DNA of 64,000 nt from an uncultured Mycoplasmatota bacterium (GCA_900553395.1 USDJ01000005.1:10489-74488), one strand, 5' to 3'; positions 37,762-50,081 are shown, counted from the stretch's first letter. The notes: generated by a model from the sequence alone, not told the origin. Program-made: numbers and translations.

Positions 37762-39228
37762 TTAATGACACCCCTTACTAAGCTTTTTTTGCTTTTGCTT
37801 TTGAGCTTCATCTTTTTCTTTTAACTCAATAACCATTCCTTCTATCAAATTTTGAAGTTTCATTGTGGATACTTCAACATCATCTAAAGGCGAAACATAA
37901 AATGGTTCTGCAAACCTGATTCTATTCTTTTTTCCATAATAGATAGCCATTGGAATAATTGCTGTTCCTGTTTTTTGTGCCATTGCAACTGCGCCTTTAT
38001 GAAATGGTAATATAGTTTTTTTTCTTCCTTCTTCTGTTTTGTTTTTTCTTGTACCTTCTGGAAAAATTAAGACATTATCACCATATACCAATCTAGTTGC
38101 TAATTGCTCTGATGTTTCTTTTCTACTATTAGGATCTTTTCTGTCAATAAATACCGCACCTCTTGTCAATTTAAAAATTCTTCCTCTAAATGAGTCTTGA
38201 ATCTCTGAAGCTGCAAATCCAGCATAATATTGGTGTTTTCCTAATCCTAAATCTATCAAATAATTATCACAAGATTTAACATGATTTGAGCAAAACAACT
38301 TTCCATCTTGATAAGGTACATTATCTTTATTTTCTATAATAGGTTTAAATTTCAATTTCATAACAGGATACATTAATGTATACATTAGTCTATAGGCTTT
38401 TTTTCCTTTATTTAATTCTTTCGTATTTAATTTTAAACTTCCGCTTTTTAAATGAGCATAATACTGATTATAATATCTTTTTTTCTCTTCATCGCTCATT
38501 TTTTCTATCTCTTGAGATGTAGCATGTAAAAACTCCCCTGGTTTCACTAAATTTACTGATAATTCATCTATTTTAGTTTCAACTTCATCCCAACTATTAA
38601 CTCTTATAATATTATCGTGAGATACGTCTTTATTATAAGGATTATCAATAAGTATAACTCTAACTCCGTTTTCTGCTAAGTATAAAGCAACATCAGATTT
38701 ATCTTCTATCATTATATCAACATGTAGTTTTCTACATCCTAATAATTTATCCCTAGGACTATCTTTTTCAGAACAATATTGTTTAGAATCAAAAGTTAAT
38801 GAATTTTTTTCTAACCACTTATTTAGCAACTTTCTATAACGGTAACCAAGCAAATTACTACTTGTAACAAATTTTCTGGCTGTAATCAAATGCAAATTAT
38901 ATCCCTTATTTTTTAAATTGCTTAAAGTAGTTTTTGCTCCATCTCTTAATGAACATTCTTTACAATACTTTTCTAAAACCTTACTGCCATATAATAACTC
39001 TTTAGATTTTGAAAGTCCGAATATTTCACCAAAACTATAAGCTTCTGGTAATACTGGCTCTTTCTTTAACATTTTAGCCACTTTAGTATTATAAAAGCCA
39101 TTCAAGTCAGTTAAAGTTCCATCTACGTCTACTCCAATTATAGGATTGTTCTTTTTATTATTCTTTTCCACAAGTCTTCCCCCTTTAAAATTGATTGTTA
39201 TAATAACACTTATTTCACTATTTGTCAA
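37762..39228 (-). CDS. Fusion protein: HAD-type phosphatase/nucleotidase-like domain plus PlsC-type acyltransferase
   Basis: N-terminal 'IGVDVDGTLTD…HLITAR…IMIEDK' (HAD motifs). C-terminal 'NHVKSCDN' (HX4D) and 'IFPEGTRKN' (PlsC block III). The true start may be GTG 39171. Confidence 0.72.
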   Translation of the reverse strand: MTNSEISVIITINFKGGRLVEKNNKKNNPIIGVDVDGTLTDLNGFYNTKVAKMLKKEPVLPEAYSFGEIFGLSKSKELLYGSKVLEKYCKECSLRDGAKTTLSNLKNKGYNLHLITARKFVTSSNLLGYRYRKLLNKWLEKNSLTFDSKQYCSEKDSPRDKLLGCRKLHVDIMIEDKSDVALYLAENGVRVILIDNPYNKDVSHDNIIRVNSWDEVETKIDELSVNLVKPGEFLHATSQEIEKMSDEEKKRYYNQYYAHLKSGSLKLNTKELNKGKKAYRLMYTLMYPVMKLKFKPIIENKDNVPYQDGKLFCSNHVKSCDNYLIDLGLGKHQYYAGFAASEIQDSFRGRIFKLTRGAVFIDRKDPNSRKETSEQLATRLVYGDNVLIFPEGTRKNKTEEGRKKTILPFHKGAVAMAQKTGTAIIPMAIYYGKKNRIRFAEPFYVSPLDDVEVSTMKLQNLIEGMVIELKEKDEAQKQKQKKLSKGCH

Positions 39229-40993: not shown

Positions 40994-42517
40994 TTATCTA
41001 CTTTTAGCTGGCTTTTCAACTTCAATTTCTTCTTCATCTGATTTTTCTTTTTTTCTTGATAATAAATTTTCCTTTATTCTTTTTAACCAACCTTTTCTTT
41101 TCTCTGAAAATAGTTGCTCTAAATTTTCTTTTACATCAGATACAGAAACATACTCTCCATTATCTACATAATCATATTCACTTAATCGTAAATTTGATGA
41201 TAGTTCAGCGTACATTGATGGAATTCCATTTTTATAAGCATTTTCTTTTCCTATTACTCTTCTAACATCAGTTTCAGTTATTTTTTTATTTTTTAATAAC
41301 TCTATTATACTGCAAAGTTTAAACGTTCTTTTTAACTTTCTAAGAGCTTTTTTGCTTAGTGATAACTTTTCATCTGTTTCTTTTACATAATAAATCTTTC
41401 CCTTATTCTTTTTATAATAATCTTGTAAAGCCTTATTAAAATCTTTTCTATTTACATATTCACCATTTGGAAGAACTATTTCTTCTTCACCGACTTTTAA
41501 ATCGATTACTGCTTGAGGTAGTACTTCACCATCTATAACTGTAGATAAAGTCCTTTTTGTAGCATCTTTTCTAGGTGACAACTTTATAGTTTGAATTTCA
41601 TCTACTCCAGACATTATGTCTTCATACACTTGATTTATTAAAGCATTAGAATTATCAACTATAACATCAGCCAAATCCTCAGATACAGGCACTGGTTTTG
41701 GATCTTTCTTTGGATCAGTTGGTTTTACTGGAGCTGTTGGATCCTTTGGATCTTTCTTTTCTGGATCCTTCGCTGGAGATGGTGCAGGTGCTGGAGTTGG
41801 CTCCGGAGTTGGTGCAGGTACTGGAGTTGGTGCTGAAGTTTTTTCTCTTTCAGCCTTTCTCTTCTCATAATAGTCTTTCTCCCATGGTGTTAATGTTTGA
41901 AGGGTTTCTGGCCCACCAACTTCTAACAACACTCTTGGTGATGTTTTTACTATTTTTTCATATTCCTCTAGCTTTTGCATATCTAGTTTTAATCTAGATA
42001 ACCTATCTGCACAAGCTTGGCTTCTTTCAGATAATGCCTTATATTTATTTCTAGAATGCTCAGTTATATTATGGTTTTCATCGTACTCATACTTAAAAGC
42101 TCTAAGTGAATGTAATGCTACTTGAAATCTTATATCTGCTTCCTCTATATCAAATTCTAGGCGTTTTTTTTCTTGATAAATAATTTTTCTATACTTGTCT
42201 TGAGTCTCACCTAATTCGTATAAATATACATTTGTATAATCTGGCGTATTATTAATCTCATCTTGTAAAGCTTTTTCTTTTGCTAAATATGCATTTTCTA
42301 AATCTCTCTTAACAATTTCTCTATAATTTGGATTAGGTAATGAAGATGTATTCTCAGATACATACTCTCTTAAGTATTCCTCTATCTCAGATTCTTTATT
42401 AGCTTTTAATCTTTCCAATTGTAATCTTAAGTGAGTGACCTTACCATTTCTCTCTTTTTTTAACTCATCTATTTTATCCATAAATGGTTTCATTAATTCA
42501 TCTATTCTATTTTTCAT
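40994..42517 (-). CDS. Unknown modular protein A (507 aa): coiled-coil N-domain, Pro-rich linker, soluble basic C-terminal module
   Basis: Clean ORF. Residues 1-227 are paralogous to the N-terminus of the 47701-49359 product. The linker is 'APTPVPAPTPEPTPAPAPSPAKDPEKKDPKDPTAPVKPTDPKKDPKP'. No family recognised. Confidence 0.7.
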   Translation of the reverse strand: MKNRIDELMKPFMDKIDELKKERNGKVTHLRLQLERLKANKESEIEEYLREYVSENTSSLPNPNYREIVKRDLENAYLAKEKALQDEINNTPDYTNVYLYELGETQDKYRKIIYQEKKRLEFDIEEADIRFQVALHSLRAFKYEYDENHNITEHSRNKYKALSERSQACADRLSRLKLDMQKLEEYEKIVKTSPRVLLEVGGPETLQTLTPWEKDYYEKRKAEREKTSAPTPVPAPTPEPTPAPAPSPAKDPEKKDPKDPTAPVKPTDPKKDPKPVPVSEDLADVIVDNSNALINQVYEDIMSGVDEIQTIKLSPRKDATKRTLSTVIDGEVLPQAVIDLKVGEEEIVLPNGEYVNRKDFNKALQDYYKKNKGKIYYVKETDEKLSLSKKALRKLKRTFKLCSIIELLKNKKITETDVRRVIGKENAYKNGIPSMYAELSSNLRLSEYDYVDNGEYVSVSDVKENLEQLFSEKRKGWLKRIKENLLSRKKEKSDEEEIEVEKPAKSR

Positions 42518-42565
42518 ATATTCCCCTCCATAAAATTAGTGTCTATAGTAGCACATTTTTTTATT

Positions 42566-42811
42566 TTAGTCAATTTCATCATCATCTGAAGAATTAAGAG
42601 CAAATTGACTCAAAACATAATCTAGTTCGTTATTGTCTTTAACTTCTTCTAGTATTATTTTATCTTCTTTTACTTTTTCCACTGCTATCATTATTTCAAG
42701 TGGTTTTGAATTCGTTATTAAATAAACATAATTAACATTATGAAAATTTAATTTATCTACTATAATGTACTCCTTACTATCATCCAACTTAACTATTTGT
42801 CCTATATTCAT
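42566..42811 (-). CDS. Small acidic protein (81 aa), DUF1292-like pattern
   Basis: 'IVKLDDSKEYIIVDKL…NYVYLIT…IILEEVKDNNELDYVLSQF' with a C-terminal 'SSDDDEID'. The resemblance to DUF1292/UPF0473 is judged by eye only. Confidence 0.45.
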   Translation of the reverse strand: MNIGQIVKLDDSKEYIIVDKLNFHNVNYVYLITNSKPLEIMIAVEKVKEDKIILEEVKDNNELDYVLSQFALNSSDDDEID

Positions 42812-42829
42812 ATTATTAATCCCTTTCTA

Positions 42830-43198
42830 TCAATCAACATATTCACAATCTAGTGAATAATCTTTTAAAACTATAAATTTTAATTTATCGTACTCTATAG
42901 ATTTATTAGTATTTGGATTTGTTTCTTTTTTTAAAGCTCCATAACTAATTAAATCGCTTACATTTATTTCTATTACAGTCCCTATAATAGATAGTTCTTT
43001 ATATTCATCCATATTAGAATATATATACGATTTTCCAGCTAAGCAAGCATTACTTACCAATGTTGTATATTTTTTCTCTTCATCATCTTTAGCAGACTTA
43101 AGAAGTGATGGAAAACTAACTAGAAAAATTGCTGCTAAAACTATAACTATAGCTAAAAGTTCTGTTAGTGTAAAACCTTTATTATTAATATTTTTCAT
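42830..43198 (-). CDS. Type IV pilin-like pseudopilin (prepilin N-terminal cleavage/methylation domain)
   Basis: 'MKNINNKG|FTLTELLAIVIVLAAIFLVSFPSLL'; about 122 aa from ATG 43198. Confidence 0.8.
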   Translation of the reverse strand: MKNINNKGFTLTELLAIVIVLAAIFLVSFPSLLKSAKDDEEKKYTTLVSNACLAGKSYIYSNMDEYKELSIIGTVIEINVSDLISYGALKKETNPNTNKSIEYDKLKFIVLKDYSLDCEYVD

Positions 43199-43218
43199 AG
43201 CATCACCAGTATAATTAA

Positions 43219-43247
43219 ATTTTAGCACAAAATTTAAAAATAAACAA
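43219..43247 (-). promoter_or_regulatory. Candidate sigma-A promoter for the pseudopilin operon
   Basis: Minus strand reads TTGTTT, a 17-nt spacer ending in TGC, then TAAAAT (extended -10 type). Read by eye. Confidence 0.35.
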
Positions 43248-43275
43248 CAAAAAAAGATTAATATTCTTAATCTTT
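43246..43275 (-). terminator. efp terminator
   Basis: Minus strand reads AAGATTAA-GAATA-TTAATCTT followed by TTTTTTGTTG; overlaps the efp stop. Confidence 0.65.
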
Positions 43276-43831
43276 AAGCTCTTGATGCGTATTTACCATC
43301 TGCAGTATATACTGATACAACTTCTCCTTGTTCAATAAATAAAGGAACCCTTACTACTAGTCCTGTTTCTAATGTTGCATCTTTTGTTGCATTGTTAGTA
43401 GTATTACCTTTTACAGCTGGTTCTGTTTTAACAACCTCTAAATCAACTTGAGCTGGTAATATAATACCAAGTAACTCTCCTTGATAGAAAGATATTAACA
43501 CATCTAATCCTTCTTTTAAATAATTAACGTTATCTCCTAATTGATCTTTTGATAATTCAATTTGTTCATAAGTTTCCATATTCATGAAATTATAAGAATC
43601 TCCATTGGCATATAAAAACTGCATTCCTACTTTTTCAACCATAGCTTTTTCAAGTTTTACACCTGAGTTAAATCTTTTTTCTACAATTGAACCTGTACGT
43701 AAGTTTTTAAGTTTTGCTTGAACAAATGCTGCACCTTTACCAGGCTTAACATGTGAAAATTCTAAAACTGTATAAATATTATCCTCAAAAAGGATTGTCA
43801 TTCCATTTTTAATATCATTTACGTTAAACAT
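43274..43831 (-). CDS. efp: Elongation factor P
   Basis: 'FSHVKPGKGAAFVQAKLKNLRTG'; 185 aa with three-domain EF-P layout. Confidence 0.97.
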   Translation of the reverse strand: MFNVNDIKNGMTILFEDNIYTVLEFSHVKPGKGAAFVQAKLKNLRTGSIVEKRFNSGVKLEKAMVEKVGMQFLYANGDSYNFMNMETYEQIELSKDQLGDNVNYLKEGLDVLISFYQGELLGIILPAQVDLEVVKTEPAVKGNTTNNATKDATLETGLVVRVPLFIEQGEVVSVYTADGKYASRA

Positions 43832-43851
43832 ATTTTCCTCCTTTTTGAATA

Positions 43852-44019
43852 TTATTTAGTTTCTTTATGAAGCGTACTTTTTTTACACTTTGGACAGTAT
43901 TTATTTAATTCTAAACGCTCAGTAGTATTCTTTTTATTTTTTTCAGTACGGAAATTTTGGTCTCCACATTCAGTACATTTAAGAGTTATTCTTTGTCTAG
44001 CTTCTCCTTTTTTTGCCAT
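43852..44019 (-). CDS. rpmG: 50S ribosomal protein L33
   Basis: '[44 protein letters not shown]'. The ORF-track N-terminus 'MKKGGET' is the translated AAAGGAGG RBS. Confidence 0.93.
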
Positions 44020-44062
44020 AGTTTCTCCTCCTTTTTTCAATATTCCAATATATTATAGCAAA

Positions 44063-46135
44063 TTATCCATAAATTTCAAAGTATTTTTGACTAACTTTTT
44101 GACTAATTCTCTTATTTATATGACTCATATCAATATAAGATGTACTTTCTAAAGCTACATCTGGAGAAATTACTGTAAATACCACTTCTGGATTATCATA
44201 TGGAGCATATCCTGAAAAAGTAGCTGTTGTAGTAGCTGTATCTATAACTCCATCACCATTTGTGTCAAGAAAACTTTGAGCAGTTCCCGTTTTACCAGCA
44301 GGATTATGAGAAAAATCTATATATCCACTTCCTGTACCACCATAATTTAAAACTTGTCTAAATCCTTCTTTAACTCTATCAATATATTTAGAATCAGTAG
44401 AAACTTTATTTAAAACTTTAGGTTCAGCTTCATATATAAATTTTGAAAATTCTCCTTCACTAGAATCAAATACTGCTTTAAGTAGGTATGGCTTCATTCT
44501 ATTTCCATCGTTTGCTATAGTTGACATATATTGAGCTATTTGAATAGGTGTATATGTATCGTATTGCCCAATTGAAAAATCTAGTAGTAATCCTGATAAT
44601 CTGTTTTCACCTTTATATCCTAATGATTCATTAGGTAAATCAATTCCTGTCTTTACTCCCAAGCCAAATTCGGCAAAAGTAGATCTATATATATCAAATG
44701 CCTTTTCATCTATTACAAGAGGTTTATTATATTCATATTTCCCTCCACCTACTTTAATCGCAGTATAAAACTGATAAACATTAGAGGAATATTTAAGTGC
44801 AGCAAGGTCATCTATGTATCCATAATCAAATAAAGAGCATTTAATTGGAGTCGCTGCTATTTTTATACAAGAATCATATCTTACTTCACCTATTTGAAGT
44901 GCACCAGTATTATATCCAACTATATGTGAAGCACCTTTTACTATAGATCCTGGAGTAACCGATGAGGTAACAACACCAGGAGTATAATCAAATATAGTAT
45001 AGCTTCCATCATCGTTTACTTTTATTTGTTTTCCAGCCATAGCTAGTATTTCTCCAGTTTTAGGATTATTTACTATTACGTATGCTTTATCAAAATAATC
45101 TGTAAATCTTTCTTGTTTAGCAATAACTAGTTCTTCTTCTAAGATATGCTCAACTTCCTTTTGTAATTCAATATCAATAGTAAGGACTATATCATTACCT
45201 CTAGTTCCCTTTTTTAATTCGGTATGACTACTATCATCATTTATTTGGTATACTGCTTTATTTCCTTTTAGATAATCTTCATATTGAAACTCTAAATAGC
45301 TTGTACCTACTCTATCTGTTAGGCTATAGCCTTTCTTTAAATATTCCTCTTTTAAATTATACGGAATACCACTAGTACTAGACGATACACTCCCTAATAT
45401 AGTTTTAAAAACTGTTCCATATGGATAATATCTATCCCAATCAAGTTTTACATCAACACCTTTTAATTTATCTATATTCTCTGCTATTTTAGCATATTCT
45501 TCATCAGTAACATTTACATTTTTTATTATCTTTTCTGTATAGTAATAACCTTTATTCATTAAATTATATATATAGCACGCCTCATAATCTAAATCACTAT
45601 ATTGGGCAAGCTCCTCATCAGTTACTCTTTCTATTTTATACTTTTCTATTTCTTCACTAGTTATTTTTCTATTTTTTAAACTTTCTTTTTCCTTGTTAGT
45701 TATTTTTTTTGATGCCTCACTAGGGTTGTTTAAAACCCAAAACTTTCTTAACATAGTATCAGTTAATTTAGAATAATCAACATTTATATAATTAGCTAAA
45801 CTATATGCAAGTTTAATTTCTTCCTTGGCTGTTATATTAACTGGCTTTTTATAATATATAGTCTTAACCGAAATATTATCTACTATTATATTTCCATTTC
45901 TATCATATATTCTACCTCTAGGCGTAGAATCTCCTTCAACAATATTTACAGTCAGCTTTGAAAGATGACTAGTATAGTATTTATTTTTGATTATTTGAAT
46001 ATAAAATAATTTAGATGTTAATATCGCCATAACACCAATTATAAATATTACTAATATTTTATATCTTTTTTCAATTATTTCCTCTATATTTACTCTTTTT
46101 TCATGGTATTTATATTTGTTTATTTTCTTTTTCAT
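44063..46135 (-). CDS. Class B penicillin-binding protein (PBP2/SpoVD/FtsI-like transpeptidase)
   Basis: N-terminal TM anchor, then transpeptidase motifs S-I-V-K ('GSIVKGAS'), 'SSN' ('YSSNVY') and 'KTG' ('GKTGTAQ'). Confidence 0.9.
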   Translation of the reverse strand: MKKKINKYKYHEKRVNIEEIIEKRYKILVIFIIGVMAILTSKLFYIQIIKNKYYTSHLSKLTVNIVEGDSTPRGRIYDRNGNIIVDNISVKTIYYKKPVNITAKEEIKLAYSLANYINVDYSKLTDTMLRKFWVLNNPSEASKKITNKEKESLKNRKITSEEIEKYKIERVTDEELAQYSDLDYEACYIYNLMNKGYYYTEKIIKNVNVTDEEYAKIAENIDKLKGVDVKLDWDRYYPYGTVFKTILGSVSSSTSGIPYNLKEEYLKKGYSLTDRVGTSYLEFQYEDYLKGNKAVYQINDDSSHTELKKGTRGNDIVLTIDIELQKEVEHILEEELVIAKQERFTDYFDKAYVIVNNPKTGEILAMAGKQIKVNDDGSYTIFDYTPGVVTSSVTPGSIVKGASHIVGYNTGALQIGEVRYDSCIKIAATPIKCSLFDYGYIDDLAALKYSSNVYQFYTAIKVGGGKYEYNKPLVIDEKAFDIYRSTFAEFGLGVKTGIDLPNESLGYKGENRLSGLLLDFSIGQYDTYTPIQIAQYMSTIANDGNRMKPYLLKAVFDSSEGEFSKFIYEAEPKVLNKVSTDSKYIDRVKEGFRQVLNYGGTGSGYIDFSHNPAGKTGTAQSFLDTNGDGVIDTATTTATFSGYAPYDNPEVVFTVISPDVALESTSYIDMSHINKRISQKVSQKYFEIYG

Positions 46136-46247
46136 TGTATATTATATTTAATTGAAAAAAGTAAAAATATGTTTTTAACATTTAAATCACCTACTATTAT
46201 TTTATTCATTATTATTTTATTTACTCATATATTATAATGGTGAATAT

Positions 46248-46508
46248 ATGAAAGGTTTAATCAAAAATTATATAGATTTATTATCGATAGATAAGCTAAA
46301 GAGTTTTGCTTTAAAAAACGATATAAACTTAAATGAAGAACAACTAGAATATATATTAAATTTAACTAAAAACAGTTGGGAAGATATACTTATTAACGAT
46401 GATAAATACTTCAAACTATTACAAGACAAAATTGATCAGTCTAATTTAGATAAAATTAGAGAATTATTTTTATATTACAAAAACAGATATAAAGGATATT
46501 TAATTTAA
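46248..46508 (+). CDS. Small hypothetical protein (86 aa), possibly DUF2624/YqfT-like
   Basis: Lies next to nfo, as yqfT lies next to yqfS in B. subtilis. Helical, 'LSIDKLKSFALKNDINLNEEQLEYIL'. The assignment is weak. Confidence 0.4.
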   Translation: MKGLIKNYIDLLSIDKLKSFALKNDINLNEEQLEYILNLTKNSWEDILINDDKYFKLLQDKIDQSNLDKIRELFLYYKNRYKGYLI

Positions 46509-47372
46509 GACATCTGAAATTAGATTAGAATTAAACTTCTTGGATTTTATCATAGCAATTTCTTGTTTGTAAGGAGCACATCCTTCTATAAAAGGTGTTT
46601 CTAATATTTTAGGAATATCTTTTATTTTTTCATGATAAATAATATTAATTAATGTATCAAATCCTATAGTCCCATATCCTATATTTTCATGCCTATCTTT
46701 CCTAGCACCGATCTCATTTTTAGAATCATTTATATGTATAACTTTTAGAAAATTTAAACCGATTTTCTCATCGAACTCACTTAATAATTGATCAAAATTT
46801 CTTACATCATATCCAGCATCATTTAAATGGCAAGTATCAAAACATACTCCAATATTTTCTTTATGTTTTATTCCATCTATAATTGATTTTAATTCATCAA
46901 AATTGCGACCGATTTCTGTACCTTTTCCTGCCATTGTTTCTAAACATATAACAACTCTTGTATCATCACCTATTGCCATATTTAAAGAATCTACAATATT
47001 TTTTATCCCCTTTAAAACTCCTAGTCCCACATGGCTTCCGGGATGCAATACTACACTTTTTATTCCTAATTTAGAAGCCCTATCTATTTCTTCTTTTAAA
47101 AATCTAACATTAAAGTCAAAGTTTTTATCATTAGCCAAATTTATTATATAGGGAGCATGTATTACTACATTATTTATATCAATACTATTTTCATTCATAA
47201 TTTCAATAGCTTCTTTTGTCAACGTATCATTTATTGGCACTCTAACTGTGTTTTGTGGTGCTCCTGTATAAAACATAAAACAATTTGAACCATACCCTAG
47301 AGCACTTTCAACACTTCCTTTAAGCTGTGTTTCCTTATTAAATTGCACGTGTGAACCTATTATTAAACTCAT
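46500..47372 (-). CDS. nfo: Endonuclease IV (AP endonuclease family 2)
   Basis: 'IHAPYIINLA', 'VLHPGSH', 'LETMAGKG', 'CFDTCH', 'IHINDS'. ATG 47372 follows AGGTG. Confidence 0.93.
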   Translation of the reverse strand: MSLIIGSHVQFNKETQLKGSVESALGYGSNCFMFYTGAPQNTVRVPINDTLTKEAIEIMNENSIDINNVVIHAPYIINLANDKNFDFNVRFLKEEIDRASKLGIKSVVLHPGSHVGLGVLKGIKNIVDSLNMAIGDDTRVVICLETMAGKGTEIGRNFDELKSIIDGIKHKENIGVCFDTCHLNDAGYDVRNFDQLLSEFDEKIGLNFLKVIHINDSKNEIGARKDRHENIGYGTIGFDTLINIIYHEKIKDIPKILETPFIEGCAPYKQEIAMIKSKKFNSNLISDVLN

Positions 47373-47394
47373 TTTAATCACCTATATTAGTATA

Positions 47395-47425
47395 ACAAAA
47401 AAACATATTATTTAAAATATGTTTT
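47395..47425 (-). terminator. Terminator closing the four-gene unknown cassette
   Basis: Minus strand reads AAACATAT-TTTAAATA-ATATGTTT followed by TTTTGTT. Confidence 0.65.
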
Positions 47426-47431
47426 TAAATT

Positions 47432-47686
47432 TTATTCTCCATATTCATCATTATATTGAATCTTATAATCTTCTATTAACTCATTTAAAATGACTGGATT
47501 ATTTATTTTCTGGCAATAAGTTTTACCATCTTTTACAATTTCTTTTAATACAGCATAATCATTAGTTGGTTCTCCATTTGAATCTAATAGTACTGATAGA
47601 AAATAATTTTCTTCTGTAAGTTCACTGTTCAATAACAATAAATAATTTTTATTATTAGCTAGCGTAACAACTTCATCAACCCTCAT
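47432..47686 (-). CDS. Small acidic protein (84 aa), DUF1292-like pattern
   Basis: 'VVTLANNKNYLLLLNSELTEENYFLSVLLD…YAVLKEIVKDGKTY…NNPVILNELIEDY', acidic C-terminus; starts 14 nt after the 552-aa gene. Confidence 0.45.
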   Translation of the reverse strand: MRVDEVVTLANNKNYLLLLNSELTEENYFLSVLLDSNGEPTNDYAVLKEIVKDGKTYCQKINNPVILNELIEDYKIQYNDEYGE

Positions 47687-47700
47687 AATAATATTCCTTT

Positions 47701-49359
47701 CTACATAGCATGTGAATGTCTTAACTCTTCTTCAGGTTCCTCTACTGGACTATTTTTAGTTTCTGGTTTAACTTTTGCTTTTGACTTGTCCATTTTTTTG
47801 GCAAAAGAGTTTAATTTTCTAAATAAAATCTTTTTCTCATCGTCGTTTAATTTTTCACTAGACTGTATTTGTTCAAACAAAATCTCAAAAGATTGATCAT
47901 TTTCAGGATCATTAAAATTAAAATCTTTTTTAAACATTTTTATTTTATTATTAATTCTTTTATATTCATCTGATCTTTTTGGTATTAATAATCCTGTTCC
48001 TAACGCACCAAGACCTCCAAGCCCGGTACCTAAAGTTAATTTTGTTAATAATGCTGCTGTGGCTTGGGCTGAACCTGCTTTTATTGCAGCTGCTTTAGCT
48101 GCTGTTGGAAGAACTTTTCCCCCAATTGTCCAAATTCCAGTATGTGCATTAAAACTAGCTGCTGCTCCAGTCATTGAAGATATTGTATTAGCTAGTGCTG
48201 TGTTAGCACCATGAAGAGCTACCTTTTCACCAGCCGCCGCGGCGTGCCACATACTACCATTAGATAGCATCTGAGAAAATAATCCTGCTGTTTGAGTAGC
48301 CTTTGCTGATGCTACTAGCGCTGGCAATAATTGTGTAATTAATACGACAGTTGCTACTGCTAATGCAGTTATACCTATAGCTATTAAAATTTGTTTCTTA
48401 TGATTTTTAATCCATTGCCATGGAGTAGTTTTTACAACTGCGACCGGCTCCTCATCTGGTTTTATCGGAACTGGAGTTGGTTCAGTTGGATCTTTCTTTT
48501 CTGGATCCTTCGCTGGATCTGATGGATCCACTGGATCTTTCTTTTCTGGATCGTCCACTGGAGTTGATGGGTCTGTTGGATCTTTCTTTTCTGGATTATC
48601 CACTGGAGCTGTTGGATCTGCTGGGTCTTTCTTTTCTGGATTATCCACTGGAGCTGTTGGAGTTGGCGCTGGAGATGGAGTTTGAATTTTATCTCTTTCA
48701 GCCTTTCTCCTCTCATAATAATTCCTTTCCCATGGCGTTAATGTTTGAAGTGTTTCTGGTCCACCAACTTCTAACAACACTCTTGGTGATGTTTTTACTA
48801 TTTTTTCATATTCCTCTAATTTTTGCATATCTAGTCTTAACTCAGCTAACTTATCTTTAATTGCGTTACTTTTGTCAAATAATGCTTTATACTCTTTACC
48901 ATTAGTTACATTGTGATTTGCATCATACTCATACTTAAAGCCCCTCATCTGATGCATAACATTTTCGAACTCTAGTTCAACTTCTTCTATTCTAAATTTT
49001 AAATGTTCCTTGGCCTGATAAATAATTTTTCTATATTCGTCCTGAGCTTCACCTAATTCATATAAATATACATTTGTATAATCTGGTGTTTTATTAATCT
49101 CATCTTCTAAAGCTTTTTCCCTTGCTAAATATTCATTTTCCAAATCTCTCTTTTGAATATCTCTATAATTTGGATTTGGCCATTGAGCAGGATTTTCAGG
49201 AACAACTTCTTTCAAATATTCTTCTATTTCAGATTCCTTATTATTTCTTAATTTTTCTAATTGTAACTTTAGGCCTCTAGTTTGATTGTTTCTTTCTTTT
49301 TTTAACTCGGCTAATTTATCCATAAATGGTTTCATTAATTCATCTACTACACTATTCAT
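47701..49359 (-). CDS. Unknown modular protein B (552 aa): coiled-coil N-domain, PEKKDP repeats, TM plus Ala/Gly-rich membrane module, charged tail
   Basis: N-domain paralogous to the 40994-42517 product. Followed by 'PVDNPEKKDP' repeats, the TM segment 'ILIAIGITALAVATVVLITQLLPALVASA', and the Gly-zipper-like 'LTLGTGLGGLGALGTGLLIP'. AGGAG RBS 8 nt before ATG 49359. Confidence 0.7.
   Translation of the reverse strand: MNSVVDELMKPFMDKLAELKKERNNQTRGLKLQLEKLRNNKESEIEEYLKEVVPENPAQWPNPNYRDIQKRDLENEYLAREKALEDEINKTPDYTNVYLYELGEAQDEYRKIIYQAKEHLKFRIEEVELEFENVMHQMRGFKYEYDANHNVTNGKEYKALFDKSNAIKDKLAELRLDMQKLEEYEKIVKTSPRVLLEVGGPETLQTLTPWERNYYERRKAERDKIQTPSPAPTPTAPVDNPEKKDPADPTAPVDNPEKKDPTDPSTPVDDPEKKDPVDPSDPAKDPEKKDPTEPTPVPIKPDEEPVAVVKTTPWQWIKNHKKQILIAIGITALAVATVVLITQLLPALVASAKATQTAGLFSQMLSNGSMWHAAAAGEKVALHGANTALANTISSMTGAAASFNAHTGIWTIGGKVLPTAAKAAAIKAGSAQATAALLTKLTLGTGLGGLGALGTGLLIPKRSDEYKRINNKIKMFKKDFNFNDPENDQSFEILFEQIQSSEKLNDDEKKILFRKLNSFAKKMDKSKAKVKPETKNSPVEEPEEELRHSHAM
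48481..48654 (-). repeat. In-frame tandem repeats (about 42 nt / 14 aa) encoding the DPEKKDP-x-DP-x-x-PV linker
   Basis: 'ggatctttcttttctgga' recurs four times. Protein reads 'PVDNPEKKDPADPTA PVDNPEKKDPTDPST PVDDPEKKDPVDPSD PAKDPEKKDPTEP'. Confidence 0.85.
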
Positions 49360-49416
49360 TTCAACCACTCCTCACTAATCTACATAATATCATAAAAACA
49401 TAAATTTGGCAAATTA

Positions 49417-49716
49417 TTACTTATTTTCTACCATATTTATAGTACTAACAATAAATTGAGCACTAATATCTTCTAGTGCATTTATATATGAATAAACTGC
49501 TTCTAAAAACTCAGGTTCACTCAAATCTGCTCTTTTTATATTTAACATTTCTTTGTTTAACATTATATTAGGCATTATTCCCATTTTATAGCAAAGAAGA
49601 GAATAATTAGAAATTAATTCTTCTAACTCTTTTATTATTTCACTTCTCTTATTTTCTATTGGAAGTAATTTATAATACTCCATAAGTCCTACAAACGCTT
49701 CTTTTTGTACTTCCAT
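49417..49716 (-). CDS. Hypothetical small protein (99 aa), sequence pattern suggests helical
   Basis: Its ATG overlaps the upstream stop (TAATG). No motif recognised. Confidence 0.5.
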   Translation of the reverse strand: MEVQKEAFVGLMEYYKLLPIENKRSEIIKELEELISNYSLLCYKMGIMPNIMLNKEMLNIKRADLSEPEFLEAVYSYINALEDISAQFIVSTINMVENK

Positions 49717-50081
49717 TATCTCATCACCTTTACTGGTGCTTTAAAGCTATCATTACTATATCCATATGTATTTATGAATCGCTCCATAGCTTTTGTAGCC
49801 GAATGGATATTACTTACCATTTGATATTTTCTTTTAAAGGCTTCAAAATTTTTTATTGCAATAGCTGTTTGACCAGATTTTTTAGATTTTAACTTTTCTT
49901 GTCTTGCTATTTCATTTTTTCCAACAATTTTTTCTATCTGCTTTTCTATATAGAGTATTTCAGCTCTAATGCCGTTAATTTCATCCATTGATCTATCACT
50001 AGAATTTAATAGCTGATTTAATTTTAATTGTAAATCTAATTTTTGATTCTCTAATGAATTTACATCTGACCAACTTATCAT
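49716..50081 (-). CDS. Hypothetical small protein (121 aa), coiled-coil-like
   Basis: AGGAGG RBS ('taggaggctttattATG'). Heptad-like 'LENQKLDLQLKLNQLL…IRAEILYIEKQIEKIV'. No family recognised. Confidence 0.5.
   Translation of the reverse strand: MISWSDVNSLENQKLDLQLKLNQLLNSSDRSMDEINGIRAEILYIEKQIEKIVGKNEIARQEKLKSKKSGQTAIAIKNFEAFKRKYQMVSNIHSATKAMERFINTYGYSNDSFKAPVKVMR

Follow-up and report, generated by a model that had tools for sequence, protein, structure and literature searches.

A 64,000-nucleotide stretch of DNA from an uncultured Mycoplasmatota bacterium (GCA_900553395.1 USDJ01000005.1:10489-74488), hereafter the window, carries two paralogous genes that share an N-terminal domain, the head, and differ completely in their C-terminal parts, the tails. 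The first, copy A (positions 40994-42517, minus strand, 507 amino acids (aa)), is the orthologue of a core protein that lacks annotation, occurs as a single copy, and is restricted to a clade of uncultured gut Bacilli. The second, copy B (47701-49359, minus strand, 552 aa), is an accessory paralogue that is found in some lineages only. In other words, a conserved core protein appears to have given rise to membrane-anchored paralogues retaining its head. The explanation that we favor, with a probability of roughly 0.4, is that the family is a clade-specific cytoplasmic helical scaffold or adaptor, of which A would be the core form, either soluble or peripheral, and B an accessory form anchored in the membrane. 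An initial annotation of the window had seen in the same two genes the constant head and swappable tails of a polymorphic effector or adaptor family.

Both genes are open reading frames (ORFs) of a window that is AT-rich (approximately 27% GC) and coded almost wholly on the minus strand. Copy A starts with the ATG at 42517, which has the ribosome-binding site (RBS) GGAGGGG upstream, and copy B starts with the ATG at 49359, which is preceded at a distance of 8 nt by GAGGAG and, further upstream, by a promoter-like site at 49412-49384. A GTG at 49368 was considered as an alternative start of copy B and was rejected, as it falls within the RBS itself. The gene coordinates first proposed are right, and the ATG of copy B with its RBS supports them.

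The heads, residues 1-226 of copy A (41840-42517, minus strand) and residues 1-224 of copy B (48688-49359, minus strand), were compared by BLASTP, pairwise alignment, and codon comparison. BLASTP aligns the two proteins with 60% identity across 310 aa (E 1e-118) and finds nothing significant beyond the linker; over the heads, the pairwise alignment gives 71% aa identity with a single 2-residue gap. The initial annotation, which had estimated by eye a match of about two thirds over roughly 225 residues, followed by a Pro-rich linker and then full divergence, was accurate on these points, and every shared block that it quoted is found in the pairwise alignment. The DNA of the heads is 78% identical, 36 of the 158 codons that encode an identical residue differ synonymously, with the differences scattered along the head, and the NG86 method gives nonsynonymous (dN) and synonymous (dS) divergences of 0.18 and 0.72, or a dN/dS of 0.25. 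Because of these synonymous differences and this ratio, the similarity of the heads is real and reflects an old duplication or conversion under purifying selection, and not a recent copy. A block of 36 residues (178-213) is 100% identical between the two heads, with a dS of 0.30 versus 0.90 elsewhere, a value based on only 6 differences in 108 nt; the longest identical DNA run is 58 nt. A recent gene conversion, considered because of the lower dS, is only a possible source of this block, given these few differences and that run.

Copy A has the canonical architecture of head, linker, and C-module and is identical to protein P0001, and copy B, with its orthologues P0073 and P0002, has a head, a repeat linker, and a predicted membrane tail. 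The Pro-rich linker of copy A (residues 227-278; 41684-41839, minus strand) has 19 Pro in 52 residues and is predicted to be disordered. The C-module that follows (residues 279-507; 40994-41683, minus strand) has a predicted alpha/beta core, to which a long and basic terminal helix is joined, and then closes with an acidic stretch and the C-terminal residues K-S-R. No signal peptide and no transmembrane (TM) segment was predicted in copy A, and the earlier description of its tail as soluble agrees with the lack of any hydrophobic segment. After the acidic stretch, 35 of the 51 A-type clusters described below end in [KR]x[KR]-COOH, versus approximately 3% expected from composition; KTR is the commonest form, and KSR is that of copy A (window 40997-41005). 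This terminal tripeptide looks like a docking or recognition peptide.

The acidic, Pro-rich linker of copy B (residues 225-308; 48436-48687, minus strand) holds a tandem repeat at 48487-48661 (Tandem Repeats Finder: period 45, 3.9 copies, 87% matches), and each 45-bp unit encodes a PVDNPEKKDPxDPxA unit of the protein. Copy B varies in length by strain, from the 552 aa of the window to 536 aa in P0002, whose linker is visibly shorter. A putative TM helix follows at residues ~321-349 (48313-48399, minus strand), preceded by KNHKK and with Kyte-Doolittle 19-residue means of up to 2.27. Hydropathy and composition then delimit an Ala/Gly-rich segment (residues ~350-435) and a Gly-rich hydrophobic stretch (residues ~436-459), which together occupy 47983-48312 on the minus strand; of 157 residues in the Ala/Gly region, 49 are Ala or Gly, and its net charge is +9. 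The hydrophobic stretch reaches a hydropathy of 1.47 at residues 441-459 and may be a second membrane span. The charged C-terminal tail (47701-47982, minus strand) runs from KRSDEYKR to RHSHAM and is kept in P0002, P0073, and the sister lineage L006 (one of the related loci, numbered L001 onwards). The TM helix, Ala/Gly-rich stretch, and charged tail that had been read from the sequence at the outset are thus also what Kyte-Doolittle hydropathy and composition give. It should be mentioned that copy B, too, ends in an acidic stretch, here followed by RHSHAM. Plus-strand antisense ORFs lie over both linkers, at 41698-41997 (99 aa) and 48477-48860 (127 aa); rather than genes, these are in all likelihood artefacts of frame that arise because the linker DNA is repetitive and richer in GC.

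A profile search of the N-terminal domain with a tabulation of the tails that follow it, as the initial annotation had proposed, was carried out by an exhaustive HMMER search with a two-sequence head profile against 1.84 billion cluster representatives (clusters at 50% identity; E <= 1e-3), and the hits were sorted locally by iterated profiles. The head family was found to comprise 66 clusters: tail A is present in 51 of them (that of copy A included), 12 are fragments, and three have other tails, namely P0002 (the copy-B orthologue), P0037, and P0062. Approximately 54 clusters are full length, so that the 51 with tail A are nearly all of these. Because tail A is found in 51 of the 66 clusters, the head and tail A are an essentially fixed pair, and copy A, which fits the family over its full length, is the window's orthologue; copy B fits it in the head only. 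The notion of a constant head with swappable tails therefore stands in part: the head is separable and occurs with more than one tail, but a single tail is shared by the 51 clusters. By the initial annotation's own account, its inference would have been undermined by a known, widely annotated domain with a fixed C-terminal partner; the partner is indeed largely fixed, but the head does not correspond to any domain annotated so far.

The family is newly delimited by this census, and its boundaries, motifs, and syntenic address can be given, with no Pfam model or structural relative found for its approximately 66 clusters. A typical member has 480-680 aa, with a median head end at residue 246 and lineage-specific coiled-coil insertions. 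The linker measures 0-173 aa, has a mean Asp+Glu content of 33%, and is acidic in most members. Conserved motifs are IMKPYFDKK, NKExEIxEY, FKYEYDExH, and TPWEKEEYDRRK in the head, and LPNGEYxN, KNKG, CSxxKL, GxYI, and WL in the C-module. In the sister lineage L006, the A-type protein P0071 is 72% identical to copy A over its whole length, and cluster members from several assemblies hold their length (A, 507-509 aa; B, 552 aa). Neither copy A nor copy B has a match in Pfam or NCBIfam at E <= 1, no consistent Pfam family match was found across 55 members, the other B-type proteins have no meaningful match in Pfam, NCBIfam, PHROGs, or PADLOC, and a profile search of the PDB sequences returned nothing below E 0.1. 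Word-indexed searches with the head alone or tail A alone gave no matches and did not recover the query itself, and the same type of search with a 55-sequence alignment, limited to 8000 candidates and probably dominated by words from the acidic linker, gave at least nine close matches; a contig scan with a two-sequence head alignment found no loci, and one with a 10-sequence alignment found three.

Human-gut metagenomes are the source of the related loci, together with metagenome-assembled genomes labelled only "Bacilli bacterium". The A gene is single-copy and syntenic amid housekeeping genes in every locus examined: the order is efp, a pilin-like gene (120-132 aa), a gene of 79-91 aa, A, and then relA or an ORF of ~1560 aa. 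This order holds in L001-L008 and L012, even at approximately 30% identity of the A protein. Such a neighborhood raises the possibility that A is a translation, stringent-response, or DNA-replication factor, whose basic C-module and acidic-then-basic C-terminus would dock on the ribosome, a nucleic acid, or a component of the replisome or a helicase. The synteny with efp, rpmG, relA or the ~1560-aa ORF, and pcrA across such distant lineages is consistent with this explanation, as are the likeness of the terminal [KR]x[KR] to a docking peptide and the conserved Lys/Gly motifs of the C-module (KNKG, GK). Nevertheless, no nucleic-acid-binding or ribosome-associated domain was found by sequence or by fold, the core of the C-module (residues 279-470) has a pI of 5.5 and so is not basic overall, a membrane-embedded paralogue is harder to fit, and a conserved order of genes does not have to imply a common function when the genomes are small and streamlined. 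We therefore consider such a role unlikely.

Copy B occupies a second fixed place, after pcrA and genes of 121 and 99 aa and before nfo. A head gene is found at this B locus in the window, in L001 (675 aa; head hidden Markov model (HMM) E 3.4e-10), in L011 (at least 912 aa; head HMM E 1.4e-18), and in L015 (P0037), and is absent there in L004, L012, and L014. In total, five kinds of tail are known with the head: the A module, the tail of the window's B, and those of P0037, P0062/L011_B, and L001_B, with the P0062 and L011_B tails being mutually homologous (E 6e-33). The B tails are thus of approximately four unrelated kinds, all with hydrophobic, Gly-rich segments past the linker. The B tail of L006 is by eye a near-match to that of the window, and the Ala/Gly segment appears to be closely conserved there.

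Each of the two head genes has a small acidic gene beside it. An 81-aa DUF1292-like gene (42566-42811, minus strand) lies immediately upstream of copy A, and an 84-aa gene (47432-47686, minus strand), its remote homologue, lies immediately downstream of copy B. The position of the 81-aa gene is kept in L001-L004, L006-L008, and L012, with 53-58% identity. BLASTP shows no link between the 81-aa protein and its 84-aa counterpart, and only the hhalign profile comparison joins the two families (A6 versus A7: probability 94.8%, E 5.5e-8, 72 columns). The 81-aa orthologues match PF06949 (DUF1292) at E 1e-5 to 6e-4, with scores of 26.5 bits in L008, 23.5 in L012, 23.0 in L003, and 21.0 in L001 against a gathering score of 24; the window's own 81-aa and 84-aa proteins have no Pfam match at E <= 10. 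At the B locus, P0037 (L015) has homologous small genes on both sides, and L001_B is preceded by a DUF1292 gene. Because a homologous small gene stands beside each head gene, the duplicated unit appears to comprise two genes, a DUF1292-like gene and a head gene. The small proteins of the A locus agree with DUF1292/UPF0473 (YrzB-like; PF06949) in size and in their acidic C-terminus. The canonical gene of that family belongs to an operon, ireB-ruvX-DUF1292-mltG, that the clade has elsewhere (L017, 6131-8187), and the copies described here are extra paralogues paired with head genes. No functional study was found in the literature on DUF1292, yrzB, or UPF0473.

A small gene adjoining each head gene is also what is expected if the family were a polymorphic effector or toxin, in which a trafficking head delivers interchangeable tails and small immunity or chaperone genes adjoin. 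The head is known with about five unrelated tails, and the linkers are repetitive and vary in length between strains, as such a family would have it. The tails themselves, however, argue otherwise, since a single one is common to 51 of approximately 54 full-length clusters, and the tails are kept across species and are not strain-variable. In Pfam and NCBIfam searches with A and B and with the 55 members, there was no signal peptide, no LXG, WXG100, PT-TG, Rhs, or CdiA-type or haemagglutinin-repeat domain, and no toxin domain. Linkage to type VII and type VI secretion systems (T7SS, T6SS), Tc, and contact-dependent inhibition (CDI) was tested, and no secretion genes were found among the neighbors. 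PHROGs and PADLOC searches of the window gave no meaningful match and hence no phage or defense link. The small genes of the A locus retain 53-58% identity where A retains only ~30%, the opposite of the behavior of immunity genes, and they lie upstream of A but downstream of B, with no co-varying downstream immunity gene. The polymorphic toxins (LXG/T7SS, Rhs, and CdiA) do resemble the present family in having a constant N-terminal part, alternative C-terminal parts, and a small adjoining gene; a secretion domain, a toxin domain, strain-level variability of the tails, and a variable immunity gene were each tested and were not found here. The effector reading of the initial annotation is thus largely refuted, and we regard it as very improbable. 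No new toxin, effector, or defense system is revealed by these genes.

What the head might do instead is suggested by its predicted structure. In an AlphaFold 2 (AF2) model made with the 55-sequence alignment, the head has a predicted local distance difference test (pLDDT) score of mostly > 90 and is composed of helices at residues 4-52, 65-90, 95-139, 153-191, and 211-228; the charged helix at the N-terminus (MKNRIDELMKPF...) is the start of this confidently predicted bundle. The linker (residues 246-282) has a pLDDT < 50 and is predicted to be disordered. The C-module is modelled as mixed alpha/beta with a pLDDT of ~70; modelled alone, it reaches a pLDDT of 70 and a predicted template-modelling score (pTM) of 0.56. 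Foldseek found nothing at E <= 0.001 for the full model against the PDB or for the C-module against the PDB and BFVD. The best matches of the full model are BAR/F-BAR domains and other long coiled coils, at E >= 0.03 and TM-scores of ~0.3, and the predicted head fold is best described as a generic long helical bundle.

These matches raise the possibility that the family is a BAR-like membrane shaper, in which the head, with its three long helices, would dimerize into a crescent able to bind or bend the membrane, and anchoring would be contributed by the tails. BAR/F-BAR domains make up most of the leading PDB matches in Foldseek, the top three included (amphiphysin 3sog, E 0.032, probability 0.94; also Bin1, Hof1, SNX1, and APPL). 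Like those domains, the head is predicted to be all-helical, ~200-230 residues long, with three long antiparallel helices, as the helices at 4-52, 65-139 (kinked), and 153-191 fit a three-helix coiled coil, and paralogue B has a putative membrane anchor. On the contrary, no match reaches E 0.001, the TM-scores are only 0.2-0.36 with an rmsd of 10-14 A (for 3sog, TMt 0.30 and rmsd 13 A), and the coiled coils of chemoreceptors, HlyD, and SH3BP5 score similarly, which indicates a match to long helices generally. The head is also acidic, with a net charge of -2 in A and -7 in B, unlike the basic membrane-binding faces of BAR domains. We regard a BAR-like membrane-shaping role as quite improbable.

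The history of the heads can be followed in a neighbor-joining tree. The B head of the window groups with A heads, those of the same species and of the sister species (winA, P0070, and P0071), P0037_B joins particular A-types, and P0062_B stands with P0046_A (44% identity). The tail of P0062 is homologous to that of L011_B, as mentioned above, despite heads that are only 24% identical. In most cases, therefore, a B head seems to be most like the A head found in the same lineage, perhaps via repeated duplication or gene conversion, and such tracking is the pattern expected of co-assembling or gene-converting paralogues. It is conceivable that the heads and their DUF1292-like partners constitute a previously unseen, clade-specific cytoskeletal or membrane-organizing module, duplicated as a two-gene unit, with the heads kept alike through co-assembly; within such a module, the likeness of the heads in each genome could be due to gene conversion or co-evolution. 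We judge this more elaborate proposal distinctly unlikely. If it were true, it would provide the first candidate binding partner for DUF1292, a widespread Firmicute domain of the ireB-ruvX-mltG cell-wall operon.

According to the scaffold or adaptor explanation that we favor, the head of ~225 residues would serve as an oligomerization or partner-binding scaffold, and the tail would set its location. Copy A would be either soluble or attached peripherally through its basic terminal helix, and copy B would be integral to the membrane, having kept the head and the flexible linker while a membrane-embedded tail replaced the soluble C-module. In that case A and B might assemble together or vie for a common partner, for which the DUF1292-like protein is a candidate, and copy B would tether the assembly to the membrane. 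In favor of this explanation are the census of tails, the synteny of A and the recurrent B locus, the confidently predicted helical head with its disordered linker, the TM prediction in B and the lack of one in A, the dN/dS of the head, the pairing with small genes, the grouping of heads by lineage, the conserved [KR]x[KR] end, and the housekeeping neighborhood.

Several points weigh against this explanation. Neither domain matches Pfam, NCBIfam, the PDB sequences, or any solved or viral fold in the searches described above. Oligomerization, the contacts between heads and with the DUF1292-like proteins, membrane binding by the A helix, the identity of the partner, and membrane tethering are all steps that we infer, and the most strongly amphipathic windows do not include the terminal helix of A. 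Only one neighbor-joining tree was made, which carries no support values and has no species tree beside it, and the A and B heads of L001, only 20% identical, are an exception to the rule that heads follow their own lineage. Finally, the neighborhood of efp, rpmG, relA, pcrA, and the ~1560-aa ORF fits a role in translation or replication equally well. It should also be mentioned that the family is unannotated and has no detectable relatives, but that a pair of paralogues with one domain in common and another that differs is an ordinary phenomenon. The modest interest of the present case lies in the delimitation of the family, in the tracking of the A head of each lineage by its B head, and in the pairing of DUF1292-like small proteins, twice over, with a specific large partner, which leads to an interaction hypothesis.

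One database protein calls for a separate comment. P0068 joins a B head to an A tail, with the crossover in the identical 36-residue block, and was considered as a natural recombinant and rejected, as its flanks imply an assembly chimera. It lies at 593-2116 of L009 (ena:ERZ27287345:k141_386149), on a 2.6-kb contig that has the upstream flank of the B locus and an ORF 241 bp downstream, a distance equal to the gap between A and relA in L002. Because efp, rpmG, and the PBP gene would have to be lost in a genuine recombination, P0068 was treated as a chimera, most likely one created during metagenome assembly at the near-identical block. It is a caution for "recombinants" drawn from databases.

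Other genes around the two in the window are ordinary chromosomal genes, and the neighbors recorded include efp, rpmG, bPBP, nfo, pcrA, relA, an acyltransferase, an AMP-binding enzyme, two-component systems, and an ABC transporter; a search of the window against Rfam found one tRNA and nothing else. Directly downstream of pcrA, a 99-aa gene (49417-49716, minus strand) and a 121-aa gene (49716-50081, minus strand) recur in all of the related loci. Across lineages, the 99-aa protein retains approximately 60-67% identity, and it has a homologue just downstream of P0062 in L017 (E 4e-15), and the 121-aa protein is a predicted coiled coil with a weak FliJ-like match below threshold. All loci have an orphan prepilin-type gene (42830-43228 in the window, minus strand) that separates efp from the 81-aa gene, with a KGFTLTE motif and weak ComGC/PilA-type matches. 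Further pilin-like genes are located near pcrA in L004 and L012, and no pilus assembly genes turned up among the neighbors examined. A 488-aa ORF (37762-39228, minus strand) combines an N-terminal part like the NT5C-type 5'-nucleotidase/HAD proteins with a C-terminal acyltransferase (PF01553), which is an unusual fusion.

Among well-characterized systems, DivIVA and GpsB of the Firmicutes are cytoplasmic coiled-coil scaffold paralogues with a homologous N-terminal domain and different C-terminal domains, and are small, fast-evolving morphogenetic adaptors. They are alike to the present family in logic only, that of a shared head with different tails, and are not homologous to it: the DivIVA model of Pfam (PF05103) has no match in any of the 55 members, the lipid-binding domain of DivIVA/GpsB has ~60 residues versus the ~225-residue bundle predicted here, and one of the paralogues described here is a putative integral membrane protein. 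Tethers of the ZipA, FtsA, and EzrA type combine a membrane anchor, a long flexible linker, and a globular or helical domain. No homology with them was detected, and the order and topology differ, since here the head is N-terminal and the predicted anchor C-terminal. The likeness is again one of logic and, as far as is seen, does not extend to FtsZ binding: in both cases, a cytoplasmic domain, a long Pro-rich or acidic linker, and a membrane element are combined, and soluble and membrane-bound alternatives coexist.

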